Shown: in pieces, positions 2,520 through 29,287 of the stretch | How the letters are laid out: each line of letters begins with the position of its first letter | How positions within the stretch are numbered: the first letter of the stretch is position 1 | Notes under the pieces: model-generated | Told to the model about the DNA's origin: nothing | What the model saw: only the letters and a program-made list of their open reading frames with translations | Database searches by the model: none | Made by a program: the position numbers and the translations under genes | Source of the DNA: an uncultured Candidatus Saccharibacteria bacterium | GTDB taxonomy: Bacteria > Patescibacteriota > Minisyncoccia > Phycocordibacterales > UBA9973 | Length of the DNA stretch: 40,336 nucleotides | NCBI GenBank assembly: GCA_964418145.1 | Contig: CAYQKC010000002.1 | Location: 1 to 40,336, forward strand | Direction: 5' to 3'

Positions 2520-3617
2520 ATGAGCAAAGACTATTACAAAATATTGGGCGTAGAAAAAAATGCCTCCAAAGATGAAATCAAGAAGGCTTTTTATAAATTG
2601 GCGCATAAATATCATCCAGATAAAAAGGAAGGGGACGAAAAGAAATTTAAAGAAGTCAACGAAGCTTACCAAGTGCTTTCGGATGAAGCAAAAAGGTCAA
2701 AATACGACCAATTTGGAGCCGGTTTTGAAAATATGAATCAAGGATATGGAGGACAAGGCCAGGGCTTTTCCGGTTTTGATGGAGGGTGGGATTTTTCAGG
2801 ATTTGGCGGGGAAGCTGGCTTTGATTTTGGCAACTTAAACGATATTTTCAGCGATTTCTTCGGCGGAGGCATGGGTTCTTCTAGAAGCGAACAAAGGCGC
2901 GGGCGCGATATCTCAACCGAGATCCAAATTTCTTTTTCCGAATCTGTTTTCGGCGTGACTCGAAAAATTTTGCTTACCAAGATATCAAAATGCGGTATTT
3001 GCGGAGGTTCAGGCGCTAAAGCAGGAACGAAAATGGAAACTTGCAAATACTGTAACGGCCAAGGGAAAATTCATGAAGCAAAAAGGACGATCTTAGGCAC
3101 GATTTCTAGCACCAAACTCTGCCAGGAATGCCTGGGTACCGGGCAAGTGCCGAAAGAAAAATGCGAAACTTGCAAGGGCAAGGGCGTTTTGCGCAAAGAA
3201 GAAGAAATCACTGTCGATGTACCTGTCGGTATCCGTGACGGCGAGATGATCCGCATGTCCGGCATGGGCGAGGCGATTTCCAAGGGCACCGCCGGAGATT
3301 TGTATATCAAAATAAATGTGTCTTCGCATCCGGTTTTCAAAAGGGAAGGCAATGATTTGACGATGAATCTTGATCTCAAATTGACCGACGCCCTGCTCGG
3401 CACAGAATATCCTATACATACTTTGGATGGAGATATAACGGTAAAAATCCCGGAAGGCGTGTCTATTAATGAAATTTTAAGAGTAAAAGGCAAAGGAGTG
3501 CCGGCCGGTAAATCAAAGCGCGGAGACCTTTTAATCAAGCTCAAAATTAAAATGCCTTCCAAAATTTCGCGCAAATCCCGCGAACTCATAGAAAAATTAA
3601 AAGAAGAGGGAATCTAG
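2520..3617 (+). CDS. dnaJ: molecular chaperone DnaJ
   Basis: J-domain DYYKILGV...KYHPDK, a G/F-rich linker, and CxxCxGxG zinc-finger repeats ([32 protein letters not shown]). Confidence 0.95.
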
Positions 3618-3618
3618 A

Positions 3619-5331
3619 ATGGAAGACAAAAAGAAAAATTGTCAAAATTGTGGAAAAAATTTTGAAATAACAAAAGATGATTTTTCTTTCTACGAAAAAA
3701 TCAGCGTTCCGCCGCCTACTTTTTGCCCGGAATGCAGGATTATAAGGCAATTTTCTCACAGAAATGAAAAGATTCTTTATAAGAGAGATTGCATGGTGCC
3801 CGGTCACACGGAAAAACTGATTTCAATGTATTCTCCGAATAGCGCCATGACGGTATACGATACAAATTATTGGTGGGGAGACCAATGGGACCCGATGAAT
3901 TTTGGAGAGGAATATGATTTCTCAAAAAATTTCCTTGAGCAATTTTACGCGCTTCAGGCTAAAGTACCGCGGCCGCCTTTGGTAAACAACAAGTCATTGA
4001 ATTCTGAATTTTGTAATTTCTCCGATGAAAATAAGAATTGCTACCTGATTACTTCAGCCAACAGAAACGAGAATAGTTTGTATGGCTTCGGCTTGGTGGA
4101 CAATAAGGATATTTCCGACTGCTTATGGTGTTCTGGATGCGAGCTCCTATATGAAAGCATAGATTGCGAAAAGTGTTATGACACTATGTACTCGCAACAA
4201 TGCGAAGGCTGCGTCAGCTCGGCTTTTCTTTTTGATTGCCGGGGTTGCAATAATTGTCTCTTTTGTGTTCATTTAAGAAATAAATCTTATTACATTTTCA
4301 ATAAACAAAGCACGAAGGAAGAATACGATAATTTTAAGAAAGAATTTGGCAAACTTGCCAGCTTGAAAGATTTGATACAGAAATTTGAGGATTTTAAGAA
4401 GAAAGAATCAATGCGGAAATATGCGAATATATTGAAATCGGTAAAGTCATTGGGAGAAAATATTTTTACTTCCAAAAATATAAATCGCGGTTTTGATGTT
4501 TATCAATCTGAAGATTCGTCCTATCTGGAAGAAGGATTGAATGCCAAAAACTGTTACGATTTATGTTTTTTTGACACCGTGGAGCTTTCTTACGAATCTA
4601 GTAGCGTGGGATTGCCGGCTTACGGCTGTTTTTTCACTATCTTTTGCCGGGATTCGCACAACTTGCAATATTGCGATAATTGCCGCGGATCCAAGGACCT
4701 TTTCGGCTGTGTTAGTTTGAGAAATAAACAGTATTGCATATTAAATAAACAATATACAAAAGAAGAATATGAAACCCTGGTCAGCAAAATAATTAAACAT
4801 ATGGGCAATATGCCATATTTAGACAAAAAAGGCAGGATTTATAAATATGGGGAGTTTTTACCCACAGAATTGTCTCCCTTTGCCTACAACGAGACGATTG
4901 CTCAAGAATATTTTTCGTTGAGTCGCGGAGAAATTTTAAAAAGAGGATATAAATGGAAAGAAAATTCTGAAAGGAATTATATTATTGACATCAAGAATGA
5001 GAAAATTCCGCAAGAAATTGCAAATATGCGGGAAGATATAGTGGGCAAGGTCTTGGAATGCAAGCATAAAGGCAAATGCAACGAACAATGTACAGAGGCT
5101 TTTAAAATAACTGAAGAAGAATTCAAATTTTACAAGAAGATGAATTTACCACCTCCCAGATTTTGTCCCAACTGTAGGCACTACAATAGATTAAAACAGC
5201 GTAATCCTTTGAAGCTCTGGCACAGGAAGTGCATGAAAGAAGGATGCACCAATGAATTTGAGACCTCCTATGCCCCAGAGAGGCCGGAGATTGTGTATTG
5301 CGAGGGGTGTTATAATAAAGAGGTTTATTAG
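3619..5331 (+). CDS. large Cys-rich protein with zinc-ribbon modules at both termini and an internally duplicated Cys-rich core
   Basis: N-terminus CQNCGKNFEITKDDFSFYEKISVPPPTFCPECR. C-terminal part FKITEEEFKFYKKMNLPPPRFCPNCR ... YCEGCYNKEVY. The core repeats (...CVHLRNKSYYIFNKQSTKEEYD / ...CVSLRNKQYCILNKQYTKEEYE). Starts 1 nt after the dnaJ stop. Confidence 0.8.
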   Translation: MEDKKKNCQNCGKNFEITKDDFSFYEKISVPPPTFCPECRIIRQFSHRNEKILYKRDCMVPGHTEKLISMYSPNSAMTVYDTNYWWGDQWDPMNFGEEYDFSKNFLEQFYALQAKVPRPPLVNNKSLNSEFCNFSDENKNCYLITSANRNENSLYGFGLVDNKDISDCLWCSGCELLYESIDCEKCYDTMYSQQCEGCVSSAFLFDCRGCNNCLFCVHLRNKSYYIFNKQSTKEEYDNFKKEFGKLASLKDLIQKFEDFKKKESMRKYANILKSVKSLGENIFTSKNINRGFDVYQSEDSSYLEEGLNAKNCYDLCFFDTVELSYESSSVGLPAYGCFFTIFCRDSHNLQYCDNCRGSKDLFGCVSLRNKQYCILNKQYTKEEYETLVSKIIKHMGNMPYLDKKGRIYKYGEFLPTELSPFAYNETIAQEYFSLSRGEILKRGYKWKENSERNYIIDIKNEKIPQEIANMREDIVGKVLECKHKGKCNEQCTEAFKITEEEFKFYKKMNLPPPRFCPNCRHYNRLKQRNPLKLWHRKCMKEGCTNEFETSYAPERPEIVYCEGCYNKEVY

Positions 5332-21110: not shown

Positions 21111-21461
21111 TTGAGAGTAAGTCAATTAATGATTGTTCTTAATGCCATACTGAGAAACCCCGGCTTGAATTGTGAAGGGGTAGCTCAAAAAATAACGGAA
21201 ATGTATGGCGATAAACATGATGCAATAAGGTTTATGTTTCTTGAAGACATAAGTAAAGGTAGCTACTTATATAGTAGCTTAATAAAATGTCTCTATTGTG
21301 TAGAGGAAAGGGAAGGCCATTTCTATTATAATGGAAAATTATTGCCAGATAACAATAGAACGGATGACCTTTTTGTATCAGTTTTTCTAAAAGATCTCTT
21401 GCAGTTAAAAATAGAAAGAGATATTCAAGAACATGGAGAAAATATAAAACCCACTGGATAA
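21111..21461 (+). CDS. hypothetical protein (orphan, TTG start)
   Basis: 116-codon ORF preceded by a strong SD, AGGAGG (21097-21102), 8 nt upstream. AT-rich with no recognisable motif. Convergent on tRNA-Trp. Confidence 0.5.
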   Translation: MRVSQLMIVLNAILRNPGLNCEGVAQKITEMYGDKHDAIRFMFLEDISKGSYLYSSLIKCLYCVEEREGHFYYNGKLLPDNNRTDDLFVSVFLKDLLQLKIERDIQEHGENIKPTG

Positions 21462-21480
21462 AAACAGGGGTTTTATTTTA
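21446..21480 (+). terminator. possible intrinsic terminator of the 116-aa ORF
   Basis: AAAACCC (21446-21452) pairs with GGGTTTT (21468-21474), followed by ATTTTATGTTTATTTT. The loop is large (15 nt). Confidence 0.35.
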
Positions 21481-21494
21481 TGTTTATTTTAATG

Positions 21495-21565
21495 CGGGTC
21501 CACGAGGATTCGAACCTCGGTCAATCGTTTTGGAGACGATTATTCTACCACTGAACTATAGACCC
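21495..21565 (-). tRNA. trnW: tRNA-Trp (anticodon CCA), intact
   Basis: Minus strand GGGTCTA-TA-GTTC-AGTGGTA-GAAT-A-ATCGT-CTCCAAA-ACGAT-TGAC-CGAGG-TTCGAAT-CCTCG-TGGACCC-G. All four stems pair. CCA is not encoded. Confidence 0.9.
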
Positions 21566-21816
21566 GTTATACTTTTTTTTATTCTTTTTACTAATCCATT
21601 ATATACTGAACCGCTTTTTTTGAAACTTTTTTCTCTTTCTTTTGCATCTTCTTCGTTCTTGTAAGATTCATAATATATCAATTCTATGGGCAGTCTATGA
21701 CTGGTATTTTCCACTTTCCCTTTTTTGTGTTCAGATAGCCTCCTCCTTAAATCACTGGAATATCCTATGTAAAGTTTATTGTCTTTTTTACTTTTTAATA
21801 TATAAACATAATACAT
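21556..21816 (-). CDS. GIY-YIG nuclease family protein (small URI-domain / UPF0213-like)
   Basis: MYYVYILKSKKDNKLYIGYSSDLRRRLSEHKKGK...YYESYKNEEDAKEREKSFK. The last codons and the TAG stop lie inside the first 10 nt of tRNA-Trp. Confidence 0.85.
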   Translation of the reverse strand: MYYVYILKSKKDNKLYIGYSSDLRRRLSEHKKGKVENTSHRLPIELIYYESYKNEEDAKEREKSFKKSGSVYNGLVKRIKKSITGL

Positions 21817-21819
21817 AAA

Positions 21820-21887
21820 GGTTTTGGACCCCGTCGTTCGCGAACGACGGGGTGGAGACCGCAGTTATGCCACTTAACTAACCGCCC
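21820..21887 (-). pseudogene. truncated second tRNA-Trp (CCA): 5' part only, with a palindrome inserted in the anticodon loop
   Basis: Minus strand GGGCGGT-TA-GTTA-AGTGGCA-TAAC-T-GCGGT-CTCCA, then the palindrome, then TCCAAAACC. No T-arm or matching 3' acceptor strand exists downstream. Confidence 0.7.
21829..21852. repeat. perfect 24-nt palindrome CCCCGTCGTTCGCGAACGACGGGG flanked by direct TCCA repeats
   Basis: The sequence is self-complementary. TCCA occurs at 21853-21856 and 21825-21828 (minus-strand reading). Confidence 0.85.
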
Positions 21888-21922
21888 TAAACAAAAAACA
21901 TGCAACTTGCGTTACAGGCTTT

Positions 21923-21931
21923 AGTATAACA
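21923..21931 (-). promoter_or_regulatory. extended -10 promoter TGtTATACT upstream of the tRNA-Trp locus
   Basis: The minus strand reads TGtTATACT about 35 nt upstream of the remnant's 5' end, just after the rpmG stop. Confidence 0.4.
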
Positions 21932-21951
21932 AAACAAAAAGGAAATTGGAA

Positions 21952-22110
21952 TTACTTCTTTAATTCCTTGTGTTTTGTCTGTTTCTTGCACCACTTGCAG
22001 TATTTTTTAAGTTCAACTTTTTGAGTCACAGTTTTCTTGTTTTTTCTTGACCAATAATTGATCCTTTTACAGCTTCCGCAGGCTAATTTTATAAGTTTAT
22101 CTTGCGACAT
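21952..22110 (-). CDS. rpmG: 50S ribosomal protein L33 (below the ORF-track length cutoff)
   Basis: Hand translation gives MSQDKLIKLACGSCKRINYWSRKNKKTVTQKVELKKYCKWCKKQTKHKELKK (52 aa), the CxxC...CxxC zinc-binding L33 type. Confidence 0.88.
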   Translation of the reverse strand: MSQDKLIKLACGSCKRINYWSRKNKKTVTQKVELKKYCKWCKKQTKHKELKK

Positions 22111-22114
22111 TCCC

Positions 22115-23065
22115 TTAGAATAATACAAAATCCTTTAAAATGCAACTCAATAATGATTTTTTTGAGGCATCGTGCCAAACTACCTCTTTATCGCGCTTAA
22201 ACCAAGTCATTTGGCGCTTGGCGTATTTTAAAGTGTCGGAAACTACTTTTTCATAAATCGGGTTGTAGTATTCAAAACCGAATTCTTTAAGGCGTTTGCT
22301 TGAAATTCCAGATCTTTTTATTTTTTTAATTTCTTTCAACAGTCCATCGTCAAACATTTTTTGAACCCTTTTCTCTATTTTCTTTTTTAGCTTCGGATAG
22401 AGTAGATAAAGGCCTATCTTAATAAATTTATATTTTCCGAGTGATACATTTTCTGCATATGCAGAGTTTGTATCACTTCTTAATTTGGGGACTTTGCCTA
22501 AATATTTTGCGATTTCTATGGCGCGGATCAAACGGACTTTGTTATTTATTTCATTCTTTTCTTTTATTTCTTGCGCCCTTCTTTTGTCCAATTTTTGGAG
22601 AATTTTAAAAAGTTCGATTGCGGATTTTTTCTCCAGTTCTTTTCTCTGTTTTTTGTCGGGCAGGACTTCCGGGAAAACCGTCCCTTTAGTAACTGCATCA
22701 ATATAAAAGCCGGTACCTCCGCAGATAATCGGAATTTTGCCTTTCTTTGCAATCTCCGCTATAGCGTAGATTGCTTTTTTTTGGTATTCTGCGACAGTAA
22801 ATTTGTGTTTTGGATTAGCGATGTTTATCATGTAATGACGTACGCCTTTATATATGAAAAGATCTTCTTTTTTTGCTTGCCCCGTACCAAAATTTGAAAA
22901 ATTTTTGGTATCCGGGGTGATTTTACCGGTGCCGATATCGAGCCCTTTGTAGACTTGTCTGGAATCAGCCGATATAATTTCACCGTTTAGTTTTTTGGCA
23001 AGTTTTACCGCCAAGTCGCTTTTACCAGTAGCCGTTTGCCCAAGGATTACGATAATTTTTTGCAT
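22115..23065 (-). CDS. miaA: tRNA dimethylallyltransferase
   Basis: P-loop ILGQTATGKSDLA and ISADSRQVYKGLDIGTGK. Its ATG overlaps the murA stop (TAATG). Confidence 0.92.
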   Translation of the reverse strand: MQKIIVILGQTATGKSDLAVKLAKKLNGEIISADSRQVYKGLDIGTGKITPDTKNFSNFGTGQAKKEDLFIYKGVRHYMINIANPKHKFTVAEYQKKAIYAIAEIAKKGKIPIICGGTGFYIDAVTKGTVFPEVLPDKKQRKELEKKSAIELFKILQKLDKRRAQEIKEKNEINNKVRLIRAIEIAKYLGKVPKLRSDTNSAYAENVSLGKYKFIKIGLYLLYPKLKKKIEKRVQKMFDDGLLKEIKKIKRSGISSKRLKEFGFEYYNPIYEKVVSDTLKYAKRQMTWFKRDKEVVWHDASKKSLLSCILKDFVLF

Positions 23066-24396: not shown

Positions 24397-24403
24397 ATGT
24401 TTG

Positions 24404-24485
24404 TGCCGGGGGGGAGAATCGAACTCCCATGAGTTGCCTCGCACGATTTTGAGTCGTGTACGTCTACCAATTCCGTCACCCCGGC
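24404..24485 (-). tRNA. trnL: tRNA-Leu (anticodon CAA), long variable arm
   Basis: Minus strand GCCGGGG-TG-ACGGAATTGGTAGACGT-A-CACGA-CTCAAAA-TCGTG-CGAGGCAACTCATG-GGGAG-TTCGATT-CTCCC-CCCCGGC-A. Confidence 0.9.
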
Positions 24486-26994: not shown

Positions 26995-27003
26995 ATTATA
27001 GCA
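26995..27003 (-). promoter_or_regulatory. extended -10 promoter TGcTATAAT, 7 nt upstream of the RelA/SpoT ATG
   Basis: The minus strand reads TGcTATAAT-atagggc-ATG(26987). It overlaps the topA stop codon. Confidence 0.5.
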
Positions 27004-29287
27004 CTTTTTTGAGTTTGTGAGGGTTGTGATTTTCGCAGTTTTTATTTGAACATCTTTCAGGAATAGTTTTTGTGCCTTCCATCATCAAGTTTCCGCATTT
27101 GGGACAGATATTCCCGGTCGGTTTTGCTTTAATGGCAAACTGACAGTTTGGATAATTGGAGCAGGAATAAAATGTGCCGAACCTTCCGCGCCTTTCTGAG
27201 ATCTCTCCGTTTTTGCACTCCGGGCATTTTACACCGGTCTTTTTTCTGGCTTCTTCGACTTCATCTTTTTTTATAAATTTGCATTTCGGATAGCGCGAAC
27301 AAGAGATAAAAGTTCCGGACCCATCGCGCCTCTCGCGGATTATCAGTTTTCCGCTCTTGGAAGATCCGCATTTCGGGCATATCTCGCCAGTTTCTTTCGG
27401 ACCTTCTACTTCTGTCCCATCAAGGCGCAATGCCCCGCTACAATCAGGGTATTTTGAACATGAATAAAATTTGCCTTTACGAGAGAGTTTGATAATCATT
27501 TCACCCCCGCATTTAGGGCATTTGATATCCTTCGGCGCCTTGCCTAAATTAGTCGCTTTTTCAAGATTTTCCTTGCTTTTCACTTCTTCGGAAAAAGGAC
27601 CGTAGAAATTTTCCAAGGTTTCCCTATAATCTCGCTCTCCGCGCGAAATCTCATCCAATTCATCTTCCATTTCAGCCGTAAAAGTATCGGAAATATACTT
27701 GGCAAAATATTTTTCCAAAAAATCGGAAACTACTTCGCCCACATCGGTTGGGTAGAGAGTTCGCCCTTCTTTTTTTACATAACCGCGGTCTTCCAAAGTT
27801 TTCATTATTGAGGCATATGTCGAAGGCCGGCCGATATCTCGCCATTCAAGCTCTTTCACTAGTCCTGCTTCGGTATATCTGTCTGGAGGTTCGGTAAATT
27901 TTTTATTGCTTACAAGTTTGAGCAGTTTTAATTCTTCTTCGATTTCCACTTTCGGCAATTCTATATTTTCTCCTCGGGCGCCGGTATCGCAAATGAGCCA
28001 GCCCGCAAAGAGGATTCTAGAACTGGTGGCGGAAAAATCCGGAATTTTCAACTTGGCGACCTGGCCGCCAAGTACACTTGGCGGCCAGGTCGCCAAGTTA
28101 GCTATTACTTTTGTTTTCAGGAGTTTGGCATCAGCCATCTGGGAAGCGACAGCTCTTTCCCAGATAAGCCTATAAAGTTTTTTCTGTTCTTCATTTATCC
28201 CGGCGGAAGTTTCTTCTATGTGCGAAGGGCGAATAGCTTCATGCGCTTCCTGGGCATTTTTTGATTTAGCTTTATAGAATTTCTTTTCGGCATATTCTTT
28301 GCCGTATTTTTTTTCTATCACTTTCAAAATTTGTTCTTGGGCTTGGAGAGATAAATTTACACTGTCCGTCCTCATATAAGTGATATGGCCCGCTTCATAG
28401 AGTTTTTGTGCGATCTGCATCGTACGAGAAGGGGAAAAGCCCAGGCGGGTGCTGGCAGTTTGTTGGAGGGTAGAAGTGGTAAAAGGCGGACGAGAAGACC
28501 GCTTTTGTTCGCTTTCTTTCAAATCTTTTACGAACCACTTATTCTTTTCTCCGAGTTCCAGTATCCTTTTCGCTTCTTTCTCGTCCTTAGGTTGCTCGGA
28601 ACAAAAAAGCTTCAATTTTTCTTTTTTAATGGTCTGAAAGAGCCCTTCCAAGATAAAATATTGCTCTGGGACAAAAGCTCTAATTTCTCGTTCGCGCTCC
28701 ATGATAATCCGGAGCGCTGGAGACTGCACTCGCCCGGCAGAAAGGCCGTAACGGACTTTTTTCCAAATAAGCCCGGAAAGATCGTAGCCCACTAATCTAT
28801 CAAGCACGCGCCTGGCTTCCTGAGCCTTGACCAGTTTTTGATCTATTTCATCCGGTTTTTTTATGGCTTCTCCCACTGCCTCTTTGGTGATCTCAAAAAA
28901 GCGGACTCTCTTGATAGGAATATTTACTTCACCGAGAGTTCTTCTCCTTGATAAGGAGAGGGCGGCCGAAGGCCGAGTGAGGTTCTCTTTTTTCTTGAGA
29001 ATTTCAGAAACATGCCAGGCTATTGCTTCTCCTTCGCGGTCGGGGTCCGTGGCGAGTAATATTTCGTCGGATTTTTTTGCCAAGTTTTGCAATTCATGCA
29101 CTATTTTTTCTTTGCCTTTGGAAATTTCATAATGCGGAATAAACCCACCTTCTATGTCGATGGCTTCTTTGTTTGATTTCGGCAAGTCACGGATATGCCC
29201 TACCGAAGCGCGCACAGTATAAACACCCTCCAGATATTTTTCTATTGTTTTTGCTTTTGAAGGTGATTCAACTATTAAAAGTTTCAT
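26996..29287 (-). CDS. topA: DNA topoisomerase I with C-terminal zinc-ribbon repeats
   Basis: Toprim MKLLIVESPSKAKTI, LATDPDREGEAIAWH, ITYMRTDS (catalytic Tyr) and four CxxC...CxxC fingers at the C-terminus. Confidence 0.95.
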   Translation of the reverse strand: MKLLIVESPSKAKTIEKYLEGVYTVRASVGHIRDLPKSNKEAIDIEGGFIPHYEISKGKEKIVHELQNLAKKSDEILLATDPDREGEAIAWHVSEILKKKENLTRPSAALSLSRRRTLGEVNIPIKRVRFFEITKEAVGEAIKKPDEIDQKLVKAQEARRVLDRLVGYDLSGLIWKKVRYGLSAGRVQSPALRIIMEREREIRAFVPEQYFILEGLFQTIKKEKLKLFCSEQPKDEKEAKRILELGEKNKWFVKDLKESEQKRSSRPPFTTSTLQQTASTRLGFSPSRTMQIAQKLYEAGHITYMRTDSVNLSLQAQEQILKVIEKKYGKEYAEKKFYKAKSKNAQEAHEAIRPSHIEETSAGINEEQKKLYRLIWERAVASQMADAKLLKTKVIANLATWPPSVLGGQVAKLKIPDFSATSSRILFAGWLICDTGARGENIELPKVEIEEELKLLKLVSNKKFTEPPDRYTEAGLVKELEWRDIGRPSTYASIMKTLEDRGYVKKEGRTLYPTDVGEVVSDFLEKYFAKYISDTFTAEMEDELDEISRGERDYRETLENFYGPFSEEVKSKENLEKATNLGKAPKDIKCPKCGGEMIIKLSRKGKFYSCSKYPDCSGALRLDGTEVEGPKETGEICPKCGSSKSGKLIIRERRDGSGTFISCSRYPKCKFIKKDEVEEARKKTGVKCPECKNGEISERRGRFGTFYSCSNYPNCQFAIKAKPTGNICPKCGNLMMEGTKTIPERCSNKNCENHNPHKLKKVL
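28050..28099. repeat. perfect 24+24-nt GC-rich inverted repeat inside topA, translated in frame
   Basis: AACTTGGCGACCTGGCCGCCAAGT-AC-ACTTGGCGGCCAGGTCGCCAAGTT. It encodes NLATWPPSVLGGQVAKL in topA and NLATWPPSTLGGQVAKL on the opposite strand. Confidence 0.9.

Follow-up and report, generated by a model that had tools for sequence, protein, structure and literature searches.

A foreign tRNA-Trp gene behind a hairpin and a small GIY-YIG nuclease gene at a truncated tRNA-Trp locus: a probable selfish cassette of the Candidate Phyla Radiation

A 40,336-nucleotide (nt) stretch of contig CAYQKC010000002.1 from an uncultured Candidatus Saccharibacteria bacterium, analysed as a whole and hereafter called the window, contains a tRNA-Trp gene that breaks off in its anticodon loop and is followed by a perfect GC-rich palindrome, a gene for a GIY-YIG nuclease of 86 amino acids (aa) and a second, complete tRNA-Trp gene of different sequence. 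This locus is probably one copy of a selfish-cassette family widespread in the Candidate Phyla Radiation (CPR, or Patescibacteria), in which one or more hairpins, a GIY-YIG gene of ~85 codons and an abutting complete tRNA gene stand together. The same site is empty in some relatives, occupied in others and degenerate in one, and the tRNA that accompanies the nuclease gene is mostly of a different type from the gene that was truncated.

Empty, occupied and decayed states of the locus

The contig derives from a metagenome and falls in the Nomurabacteria/Paceibacterota part of the CPR. Coordinates refer to the whole window, and the features of the cassette are read on the minus strand (Table 1). 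Transfer RNAs were called with ARAGORN, intact tRNA-Trp genes were scored with Rfam and protein domains were identified with Pfam. Related loci (numbered from L001) were collected with the nuclease protein, by scanning one genome per GTDB species (at least 358 relatives, 80 loci kept), and through MiaA homologs for the syntenic rpmG/tRNA-Trp loci, while metagenomes were scanned with the hairpin inside a tRNA-Trp anticodon loop as query.

The remnant of the resident gene, here called type A, comprises the acceptor 5' strand, the D arm, the anticodon-stem 5' strand and CTCCA, so that the duplicated portion of the tRNA is its 5' part. It differs in every stem from the complete tRNA-Trp, here called type B, whose stems pair among themselves and not with the remnant. 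The type-B gene is the sole tRNA-Trp gene of the window, the GIY-YIG open reading frame (ORF) is the single ORF between it and the remnant, and the TAG stop of the ORF (21558–21556) coincides with nt 8–10 of the type-B tRNA. Neither ARAGORN nor Rfam called the remnant as a tRNA, and RNA folding of its region gave the hairpin only. The original prediction, made from the letters of the window, had described the remnant, the palindrome with its TCCA repeats, the GIY-YIG ORF and the overlapping intact tRNA-Trp, and all of these were recovered at the same positions by inspection, ARAGORN, Rfam and Pfam; its statement that the window holds no 3' half able to pair with GGGCGGT was also confirmed, none being found there.

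Comparison of syntenic loci revealed a presence/absence polymorphism of the kind that characterises homing endonuclease genes. The rpmG/tRNA-Trp site is occupied in the window, L087–L091, L094, L111, L118 and L127; L084 has a degenerate copy, and the site is empty in L083 and L085/L086, whose MiaA proteins are 77% and 72% identical to that of the window. In these empty sites, which the original prediction had proposed to look for, rpmG is followed after a spacer of 70–110 nt by a single type-A tRNA-Trp (GGGCGATTAGTTAAGTGGTATAAC..., GGGCGAT type), with neither ORF nor hairpin. The window remnant is identical at 32 of 35 positions to the 5' part of the intact type-A tRNA-Trp in L083/L085, and BLAST homology between the window and L083 extends from rpmG through 21853, the final base of the remnant, and stops there. 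The empty sites and this homology boundary uphold the proposal that the resident tRNA-Trp was truncated and that a GIY-YIG cassette with its own tRNA-Trp supplies the function. In L084 (MiaA 72% identical), the same leader and GGGCGGT are followed by the last ~41 nt of the ORF and by a tRNA identical to the type B of the window; by alignment this locus is a deletion derivative of the window's insertion, having lost what corresponds to 21880–21607.

The most complete occupied relative is L087, in which an ORF 81% identical to that of the window lies in the same gene neighbourhood. Its left part contains the type-A 5' remnant, a hairpin of the window's exact sequence, TCCAAAACCTT, the ORF and the type-B tRNA; its right part continues after the type-B tRNA (...ACGGTCTCCA) with a second, identical hairpin and then TCCAAAACCGCTGGCGGGAGTTCGATTCTCTCGCCGCCCGCA, which corresponds to the 3' part of a tRNA of type A. 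In L088–L091 the ORF is paired with a type-A tRNA. Homology of the window to all occupied relatives stops at 21494–21489, the tRNA 3' end. The rpmG-(cassette)-tRNA-Trp block of the window and L084 is co-directional with miaA and convergent with alr, that of L083, L085 and L088 co-directional with alr and convergent with miaA, and an in-place inversion of the block may explain the absence of a 3' remnant from the window.

That the accompanying tRNA is foreign to the gene it replaces is seen from comparison of the remnant 5' part with the working tRNA in 41 tRNA-Trp cassettes, in which the two were the same in 10 and different in 31. A type-A remnant is combined with a type-B tRNA in the window, L094, L087, L118 and L127. 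L001 and L002 show the reverse: there the remnant is type B and has its own leader, and the tRNA right after the ORF is type A; L092 and L128 likewise hold each other's types. Between L108 and L129 the flanks are 75–100% and the hairpin-ORF-tRNA unit 95–100% identical, whereas the remnants are only 72% identical and differ in the way that two working tRNAs differ. Several nested remnants are present in L002, L049 and L009. Because remnant and working types often differ and reverse combinations exist, the cassette carries the tRNA of a previous host; the co-conversion known from homing genes, in which donor flank is carried over, is thus represented by the 31 of 41 foreign-type tRNAs and the reciprocal combinations. 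The simplest reading of these sequences is that hairpin, ORF and tRNA move as a unit and that each arrival truncates the tRNA gene then in use. One working tRNA may have a mixed origin: the intact tRNA-Trp of L002 (3349–3421) has a C4-A69 mismatch in its acceptor stem, while the GGGTCTA of the upstream remnant would pair perfectly with its 3' strand, and this tRNA may be chimeric, with its 5' part cassette-borne and its 3' part from the host. A chimeric restored tRNA (element 5' part, host 3' part) was rejected for the window, where the tRNA pairs with itself and not with the remnant.

The leader of the resident gene contains a TGnTATACT motif whose position is kept, in the alignment, in relatives with and without the cassette, L088 included. 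The motif (TGTTATACT) was not called by a consensus promoter scan but may well act as the resident tRNA promoter. A consensus terminator scan likewise did not call the hairpin and T-run downstream of the type-B tRNA. The conserved tRNA bases U8-A9-G10 serve as the TAG stop of the ORF in the window (21556–21565), L001, L003, L087 and L088, and with the stop codon inside the tRNA, an RNase P cut at the tRNA 5' end would strip it from the mRNA.

Table 1 Features of the tRNA-Trp locus in the window
Feature	Coordinates	Strand	Basis or remark
miaA	22115–23065	-	upstream of rpmG
rpmG (L33)	21952–22110	-	Pfam; upstream of remnant
Leader and probable promoter of resident tRNA-Trp, 64 nt	21888–21951	-	contains TGTTATACT, extended -10-like motif
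5' remnant of resident type-A tRNA-Trp, nt 1–35 through anticodon CCA, GGGCGGTTAGTTAAGTGGCATAACTGCGGTCTCCA	21853–21887	-	
Perfect 24-nt GC-rich palindrome/hairpin, CCCCGTCGTTCGCGAACGACGGGG	21829–21852	no strand	remnant/cassette junction
TCCA direct repeats flanking the palindrome	21853–21856 and 21825–21828		
Short tRNA-derived piece, TCCAAAACCTTT	21817–21828	-	anticodon-loop 3' part and stem start, before ATG
GIY-YIG ORF, 86 aa, Slx1/UPF0213 type	21556–21816	-	ATG at 21816; Pfam PF01541
Complete type-B tRNA-Trp(CCA)	21494–21565	-	ARAGORN; Rfam tRNA, 69.9 bits
Possible terminator-like hairpin and T-run, AAAACCCCTG...CAGTGGGTTTTATATTTT	21441–21474	-	read from sequence; context only

Two neighbouring genes complete the description of the region. 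An ORF of 116 aa (21111–21461, plus strand), convergent with the tRNA-Trp, has no Pfam match and is not present in the syntenic relatives examined. At a different tRNA gene, L081 (145–805) and L085/L086 (66–726) carry a 210-aa ORF with a weak LAGLIDADG_3 match that starts inside or just after tRNA-Leu(CAA), upstream of murA; in the window, tRNA-Leu(CAA) (24403–24485) is directly followed by murA, and no such ORF is present. This is a second endonuclease-like gene with presence/absence variation next to a tRNA.

A recurrent cassette with a minimal nuclease and a constant hairpin

The association between the nuclease gene and tRNA genes extends well beyond tRNA-Trp. Among the 80 loci, which were chosen by protein only, a same-strand tRNA called by ARAGORN starts -36 to +30 nt from the ORF stop in 32, in line with the expectation of the original prediction that GIY-YIG homologs would be tied to tRNA genes, and within 130 nt of the stop in ~40; by our own estimate, at ~45 tRNA genes per megabase, fewer than one such adjacency would be expected by chance. 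The tRNAs are Trp, Ser, Ala, Cys, Tyr, Thr, Leu, His, Lys, Gln, Glu and Val. Within 160 nt upstream of the ORF, most of the tRNA-adjoining loci have a partial tRNA copy that begins at nt 1; one or two GC-rich hairpins break it in its D, anticodon or T loop, and it ends a few bases later. Whole arms are missing from many of these remnants. In 23 of 41 such loci the 180 nt upstream matched the downstream tRNA better than all 200 shuffles did, and the 150 nt ahead of the ORF contain strong GC-rich hairpins at ~19 times the density of the remaining sequence (2.53 vs 0.13 per kb). Pieces of tRNA 3' ends with the same hairpin follow the intact tRNA in L009, L016, L030, L032 and L069, and counts of such 3' remnants are approximate, an automatic rule having scored none where ~12 of 33 were recognised by eye. 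Mirror-image layouts occur in L041 and L080, and decayed copies, as expected of a selfish gene, in L042, L055, L077, L084 and L095. The order hairpin, TCCAAAACCnnn, ATG recurs in L001–L003, L063, L087, L094 and others, even where it mismatches the local tRNA. Clusters of ORF sequences track the neighbouring RNA type (two all Trp, two Ser, one Leu), and the whole unit measures ~400 bp.

The metagenome scan gave a similar picture, with 56 hairpin-in-anticodon-loop sites on 52 contigs. Approximately 36 of these are followed by the ORF and, 283–335 nt on, by an intact tRNA-Trp, while 11 lie 79–113 nt past an intact tRNA-Trp and run on as a 3' remnant; the hairpin stands both before the ORF and after the intact tRNA-Trp in L087, L117, L127 and L136. 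Among 2.9 million viral contigs, only two weak relatives of the nuclease were found, which gives no support to carriage by phage. An exact-sequence look-up of the GIY-YIG and L33 proteins of the window returned no recorded match. A second, different GIY-YIG ORF (MYYVYILKS... / MFFTYILYSE...) is present in L021 (~3560–3830) and L047 (~3560–3850), a few hundred nt downstream of tRNA-Trp and after hairpins of another type.

The same GIY-YIG family also occurs in or beside other structured-RNA genes: inside a 16S rRNA gene (L018, 3001–3261), inside a 23S rRNA gene (L044, 3001–3270), at the 5' part of RNase P RNA (L008 and L011, ~3001–3260) and 86 nt before a tmRNA gene (L072, 3001–3246). In the rRNA and RNase P RNA cases the ORF lies in the loop of a long perfect inverted repeat.

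The nuclease itself is, on sequence and predicted structure, a minimal GIY-YIG domain of the Slx1/UPF0213 type. Pfam PF01541 matches residues 1–68 with 64 bits (cut-off 22.6, E = 1.6e-17), and Y5, Y16, G18, R26, H30 and E50 are invariant in 35 homologs that are 56–84% identical to the window protein. The AlphaFold2 model (mean confidence score pLDDT 93.2) predicts strands at 2–9, 15–20 and 44–52 and helices at 23–31 and 55–67, the beta-beta-alpha-beta-alpha fold of GIY-YIG enzymes, and its Foldseek matches are GIY-YIG structures. The closest sequences found with phmmer are the UPF0213 proteins 1zg2 (5.3e-6) and 1ywl (7.5e-6), compared with 0.26 for UvrC and 0.33 for I-TevI, and TM-scores follow the same order, with 0.57–0.67 for 1zg2, HIGLE (7wme) and Slx1 (6sei) vs 0.42 for I-TevI. 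The 86-aa protein has one domain and no second, in contrast to the ~200–250 aa of T4 Seg-type enzymes, in which the GIY-YIG domain is joined through a linker to a C-terminal DNA-binding domain. No Asn is invariant or near-invariant in the homolog alignment, and the C-terminal Asn of the UvrC/I-TevI lineage is not conserved. Matches to homing-endonuclease profiles were weak (NCBIfam 'group I intron endonuclease', 23 bits vs a cut-off of 56; PHROG, E ~2e-4), while ~7000 clusters at 50% identity match the nuclease at E up to 0.001, mostly of 80–130 aa. Dunin-Horkawicz et al. placed 1zg2 and 1ywl in the Slx1 family, whose prokaryotic members are minimal, and derived the selfish GIY-YIG enzymes from another, UvrC-like lineage, the Slx1 branch being regarded as non-selfish (PMC1564403), a picture that the present family does not fit.

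The palindrome has no second copy in the window even when 3 mismatches are allowed (0 expected, 100 shuffles), folds as single-stranded DNA with -13.1 kcal/mol (z = -3.6) and is one of only two hairpins in the 40 kb that are GC-rich and have a stem of ≥8 bp. Across relatives, 22 distinct tRNA-Trp-type hairpins share CCCnGnnnnT-C-R-Y-G-A-nnnnCnGGG, in which the centre T-C-R-Y-G-A is constant and compensatory changes have occurred at 7 of 10 stem pairs (95% of cells paired). Their covariation score was reached by no shuffle, although the set was chosen for being largely palindromic, and with this caveat the symmetry could be kept by a copying mechanism and not by selection. Matches to this hairpin class lie at tRNA-Trp junctions in 28 of 31 cases in 533 kb, and the few class hairpins away from tRNA pieces are found in L028, L069 and L138. 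Other lineages have their own types, with double 6-bp hairpins in the D loop in Ser/Cys tRNA lineages and two hairpins in the T loop in Ser/Gln tRNA lineages. The repeats flanking other hairpins are TAAA or TCA, and Ser-type and T-loop-type hairpins have no flanking repeat; for the TCCA on both sides of the window hairpin, a 4-nt duplication and microhomology both fit. From its recurrence, the hairpin is a constant part of the junction and not an unrelated insertion, and its constant association with the nuclease suggests a preference of the enzyme for branched or hairpin DNA.

The ORF of sister lineages lies between the arms of a conserved inverted repeat, CCCC(G/A)CACCTTT...AAAGGTG(C/T)GGGG, whatever the host gene (16S, rnpB or unrecognised), and the window palindrome looks like the two arms of this repeat brought together. 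Direct repeats of 3–7 nt outside the inverted repeat were seen by eye in ~12 of 19 cases and by an automatic rule in 4 of 20; the counts are approximate and the rule undercounts, since the inverted repeat runs into A/T flanks. The bracketed ORF has no recognised RNA gene nearby in L004, L012, L014, L017, L019, L022, L024, L028, L031, L033, L038 and L053, and such copies often have 4-nt direct repeats (ATAA, TTAT, TAAA, TAGA, TATA, TTGA) outside the inverted repeat.

Elsewhere in the window, topA (26996–29287, minus strand) holds a 50-nt perfect GC-rich palindrome, AACTTGGCGACCTGGCCGCCAAGT gt ACTTGGCGGCCAGGTCGCCAAGTT (28050–28099), in frame. It encodes ..NLATWPPSVLGGQVAKL.. in a region with ~15 extra residues relative to E. 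coli TopA, and resembles the in-frame palindromic insertions of Rickettsia.

Proposed mechanism and alternative explanations

We propose that the cassette inserted into the anticodon loop of the tRNA-Trp gene resident downstream of rpmG, leaving the type-A gene as nt 1–35 capped by the hairpin, and that the type-B tRNA-Trp of an earlier host took over its function. The nuclease would break a cassette-free tRNA gene in or near a loop, and repair would copy hairpin, ORF and tRNA from a cassette-bearing copy in a homing-like manner. Short, universally conserved sequences of the loops beside the hairpins (GGTCTCCA / TCCAAAACC) would be the only homology needed, which would explain both the position of the junctions in loops and transfer between hosts with differing tRNA stems. 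The accompanying tRNA would rescue the cell, and each new invasion would make the current working tRNA the next remnant. With no separate promoter evident and the ORF running into the tRNA, the resident tRNA promoter most likely drives both, in which case the nuclease gene could not be silenced without losing tRNA-Trp. The hairpin might disrupt the target site at the junctions, act as a structured substrate of the Slx1-like nuclease or form an RNA stem. What the sequences show is the layout of the parts, presence/absence variation at one site, a tRNA of foreign origin, recurrence throughout the family and invariant catalytic residues; nuclease activity and target, the repair route and the hairpin role are inferred.

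Several observations weigh against this proposal. Homing endonucleases read long target sites through a DNA-binding module, while the present protein is a catalytic core of 86 aa in a single domain, and belongs to a branch regarded as free of selfish members (PMC1564403). In many cassettes the working tRNA has the anticodon stem-loop of the presumed target, which leaves its escape from cutting unexplained. The 4-nt direct repeats, at the hairpin and at the inverted repeats of sister lineages, point to insertion at a staggered cut and not to homologous repair. The right-hand junction of the window is, judged from the gene orientations, rearranged, its 3' remnant having been lost. Finally, the cassette is by its distribution old in the clade, being common to the window and L084, and sits at one syntenic site. 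Because of this, much of the 81–86% identity of the top protein matches reflects vertical descent; high protein identity as a sign of recent horizontal transfer was rejected, the proteins at 81–86% being those of syntenic relatives. The original prediction had named an ancestral fixed locus with no empty sites as one result that would speak against invasion; the arrangement is indeed shared with L084 (MiaA 72%), yet the clade also contains empty sites.

A possible but tentative extension is that the family represents a new class of mobile element, built on an Slx1-type nuclease of ~85 residues that lacks a DNA-binding domain and is guided by the structure of DNA and not by its sequence. What such a nuclease would recognise are hairpins or cruciforms, arising from its own inverted-repeat ends and from DNA that specifies RNA stem-loops, namely the D, anticodon and T loops of tRNAs and the helices of rRNA and RNase P RNA, and it would insert with a 4-nt stagger. 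The spare tRNA carried by the tRNA lineages would solve the lethality of hitting a single-copy tRNA gene and would lead to serial horizontal replacement of tRNA genes throughout the CPR.

The strongest rival, which we nevertheless regard as unlikely, is a miniature transposon whose inverted-repeat ends are seen as a hairpin or cruciform by the Slx1-like nuclease and which inserts with a 4-nt stagger, by preference into DNA for RNA loops, the ORF-less palindrome being its miniature inverted-repeat transposable element (MITE) form. The TCCA on both sides of the palindrome (TAAA or TCA at others), the conserved ORF-enclosing inverted repeat of sister lineages with its frequent outer direct repeats whatever the host gene, and a nuclease that lacks a DNA-binding domain and whose nearest folds are the structure-specific nucleases Slx1 and HIGLE are all in keeping with it. 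However, GIY-YIG nucleases have no known strand-joining activity and are not known as transposases, Ser-type and T-loop-type hairpins lack a flanking repeat, and short repeats also arise from microhomology-mediated repair. The two 12-nt arms flanked by TCCA do resemble the terminal inverted repeats and duplication of a MITE, but one copy in 40 kb and near-confinement of the class to tRNA-Trp junctions are not the dispersed copies of one, and transposition alone leaves the long duplicated tRNA pieces and the accompanying tRNA gene unexplained.

It is distinctly improbable that two independent events are superimposed, an unrelated MITE-like palindrome in the anticodon loop and a separate truncation by a GIY-YIG and tRNA cassette, as the original prediction had supposed. 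The clean 4-nt repeat flanking the palindrome and the class hairpins found away from tRNA pieces would suit such a history, as would the unrelated topA palindrome, from which it follows that palindromic insertions do occur in this genome. Against it, dozens of independent loci combine hairpin and ORF with equal spacing, the hairpin is found at both cassette ends in four of them (L087, L117, L127 and L136), and other lineages have their own hairpin types at equivalent D, anticodon and T loop junctions. What survives of the original claim is the MITE-like form, with inverted-repeat arms and a 4-nt direct repeat comparable to the repeats that bracket the ORF in sister lineages; the separateness does not, since the junction hairpin is present in nearly all tRNA-Trp cassettes and its stem covaries.

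Still less credible is that no mobile element is involved and that a tandem tRNA-Trp duplication has decayed beside a housekeeping UPF0213-type gene, acting on RNA or in repair, in a tRNA operon. UPF0213/Slx1-type proteins occur widely and have been taken for repair proteins passed on vertically (PMC1564403), and the arrangement is syntenic in several relatives, but this explanation is already contradicted by the empty sites in close relatives, by remnant and working tRNA types that differ and are reciprocally exchanged, by members of the same ORF family inside 16S, 23S and RNase P RNA genes, and by the nested remnants and decayed ORFs.

We give very little credence to the remnant as half of a functional tRNA, either interrupted by a group I intron with a homing endonuclease or trans-spliced as in Nanoarchaeum. 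The interruption here is placed beside the anticodon in its loop, a position shared by group I introns of bacterial tRNAs and by archaeal introns, and the 5' half runs into a GC-rich helix of the kind seen in split tRNAs. However, an Rfam search of 21300–22200 at E up to 10 found no group I intron or other family between remnant and tRNA, and hence no ribozyme core; the window contains no 3' half or matching 3' exon with ACCGCCC and a T arm; the GC-rich element is complementary to itself; an intact tRNA-Trp stands beside every hairpin-bearing copy examined with enough flank; and whole arms are missing from many remnants. An assembly chimera joining the tRNA-Trp loci of two strains is equally hard to credit: the contig is metagenome-assembled and tRNA genes are repeats prone to mis-joins, but the same order of parts is found in >40 contigs from unrelated samples and assemblers and in near relatives at the same rpmG locus (L094, L087, L111, L118 and L127), and recurrence in dozens of independent assemblies makes misassembly unlikely. 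Integration of the integrase type was rejected, as no integrase is present and the duplicated end of the tRNA is the wrong one.

Implications and comparison with known systems

The cassette is probably a homing-type selfish nuclease element, and there is a real chance that its mechanism is new. If the proposal is correct, a selfish element would invade single-copy essential tRNA genes and be tolerable through the substitute that it brings, and CPR tRNA genes would have been replaced horizontally and repeatedly, with consequences for tRNA phylogeny, the evolution of identity elements and genome annotation, the last because remnants, hairpins and ORFs running into tRNAs are easily misannotated. 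The family would give a biological context to the bacterial UPF0213/Slx1-type mini-nucleases, whose function has been open since structural genomics and whose lineage was thought to lack selfish members, and would join the GIY-YIG ORFs of CPR rRNA insertions with the tRNA, tmRNA and RNase P RNA cases as one family of RNA-gene invaders. It would also offer a very small nuclease and hairpin system with a targeting rule amenable to in vitro study. In the literature searched, we found no description of a hairpin/GIY-YIG/tRNA cassette, of tRNA remnants or of tRNA-gene replacement in CPR bacteria, an absence that is not proof of novelty.

The suggestion in the original prediction that mobile units of a GIY-YIG gene and a tRNA were undescribed requires correction in view of SegB of phages T4/T6 (PMC13096335) and of the GIY-YIG ORFs in CPR rRNA insertions (PMC11270868). 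SegB is a GIY-YIG homing endonuclease of T-even phages that cuts the phage tRNA region (Brok-Volchanskaya et al. 2008, as cited in PMC13096335), and its gene is described as co-inherited or co-amplified with a neighbouring tRNA gene, with recombination between the tRNA gene's 5' end and the nuclease gene's 3' end. The likeness is a GIY-YIG gene among tRNA genes whose product breaks tRNA-containing DNA and which is inherited with a tRNA. SegB differs in belonging to the I-TevI-like branch, in its C-terminal DNA-binding part and in its phage setting, whereas the present protein is of the 86-aa Slx1/UPF0213 type in cellular CPR genomes, and neither hairpin-capped remnants nor replacement of the sole tRNA gene of a host are described for SegB.

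Nearer in host range are the insertion sequences of CPR rRNA genes, which contain GIY-YIG ORFs outside group I or II introns (Brown et al. 2015, as cited; Tsurumaki et al. 2024, PMC11270868) and whose ORFs are thought not to spread by homing (PMC11270868). Host group and location in structured-RNA genes are shared, and the present family itself occurs in 16S (L018) and 23S (L044) genes. In contrast, tRNA genes, hairpins and accompanying tRNA copies are not mentioned in PMC11270868, and rRNA and RNase P RNA genes tolerate an insert where it stands, while tRNA genes are destroyed and replaced. The Slx1, HIGLE and UPF0213 (YhbQ-like) proteins are the closest in sequence (1zg2 and 1ywl, E ~5e-6) and fold (1zg2, 7wme and 6sei) and share the minimal domain, but Slx1 and HIGLE cut branched DNA in repair and are not mobile, whereas the present gene behaves as part of a selfish cassette; for the bacterial UPF0213 members, function is open and vertical inheritance is assumed.

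Genomic islands and prophages that target tRNA genes, and restore them, rely on a tyrosine or serine integrase; they are kilobases long, duplicate the tRNA 3' part and keep the host 5' part. They share with the cassette the tRNA target and a partial copy at one end with an intact gene at the other, and differ from it in that the cassette has no integrase, measures ~400 bp, leaves the 5' part behind and brings an entire, foreign working tRNA. REP-associated tyrosine transposases (RAYTs) are HUH tyrosine transposases, and repetitive extragenic palindromes (REPs) are dispersed in hundreds of copies. Like REP/RAYT systems and MITEs, the cassettes combine short GC-rich palindromes flanking a small nuclease-type gene with 4-nt repeats and ORF-less copies; unlike REP/RAYT systems, they have a GIY-YIG enzyme and hairpins nearly confined to the cognate RNA gene. 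Finally, the 'fractured genes' with split inteins (Dassa et al. 2009, PMC2677866) reportedly likewise place a small, free-standing endonuclease gene in an essential gene whose function is preserved, with rescue there by protein trans-splicing and here by a whole replacement gene.

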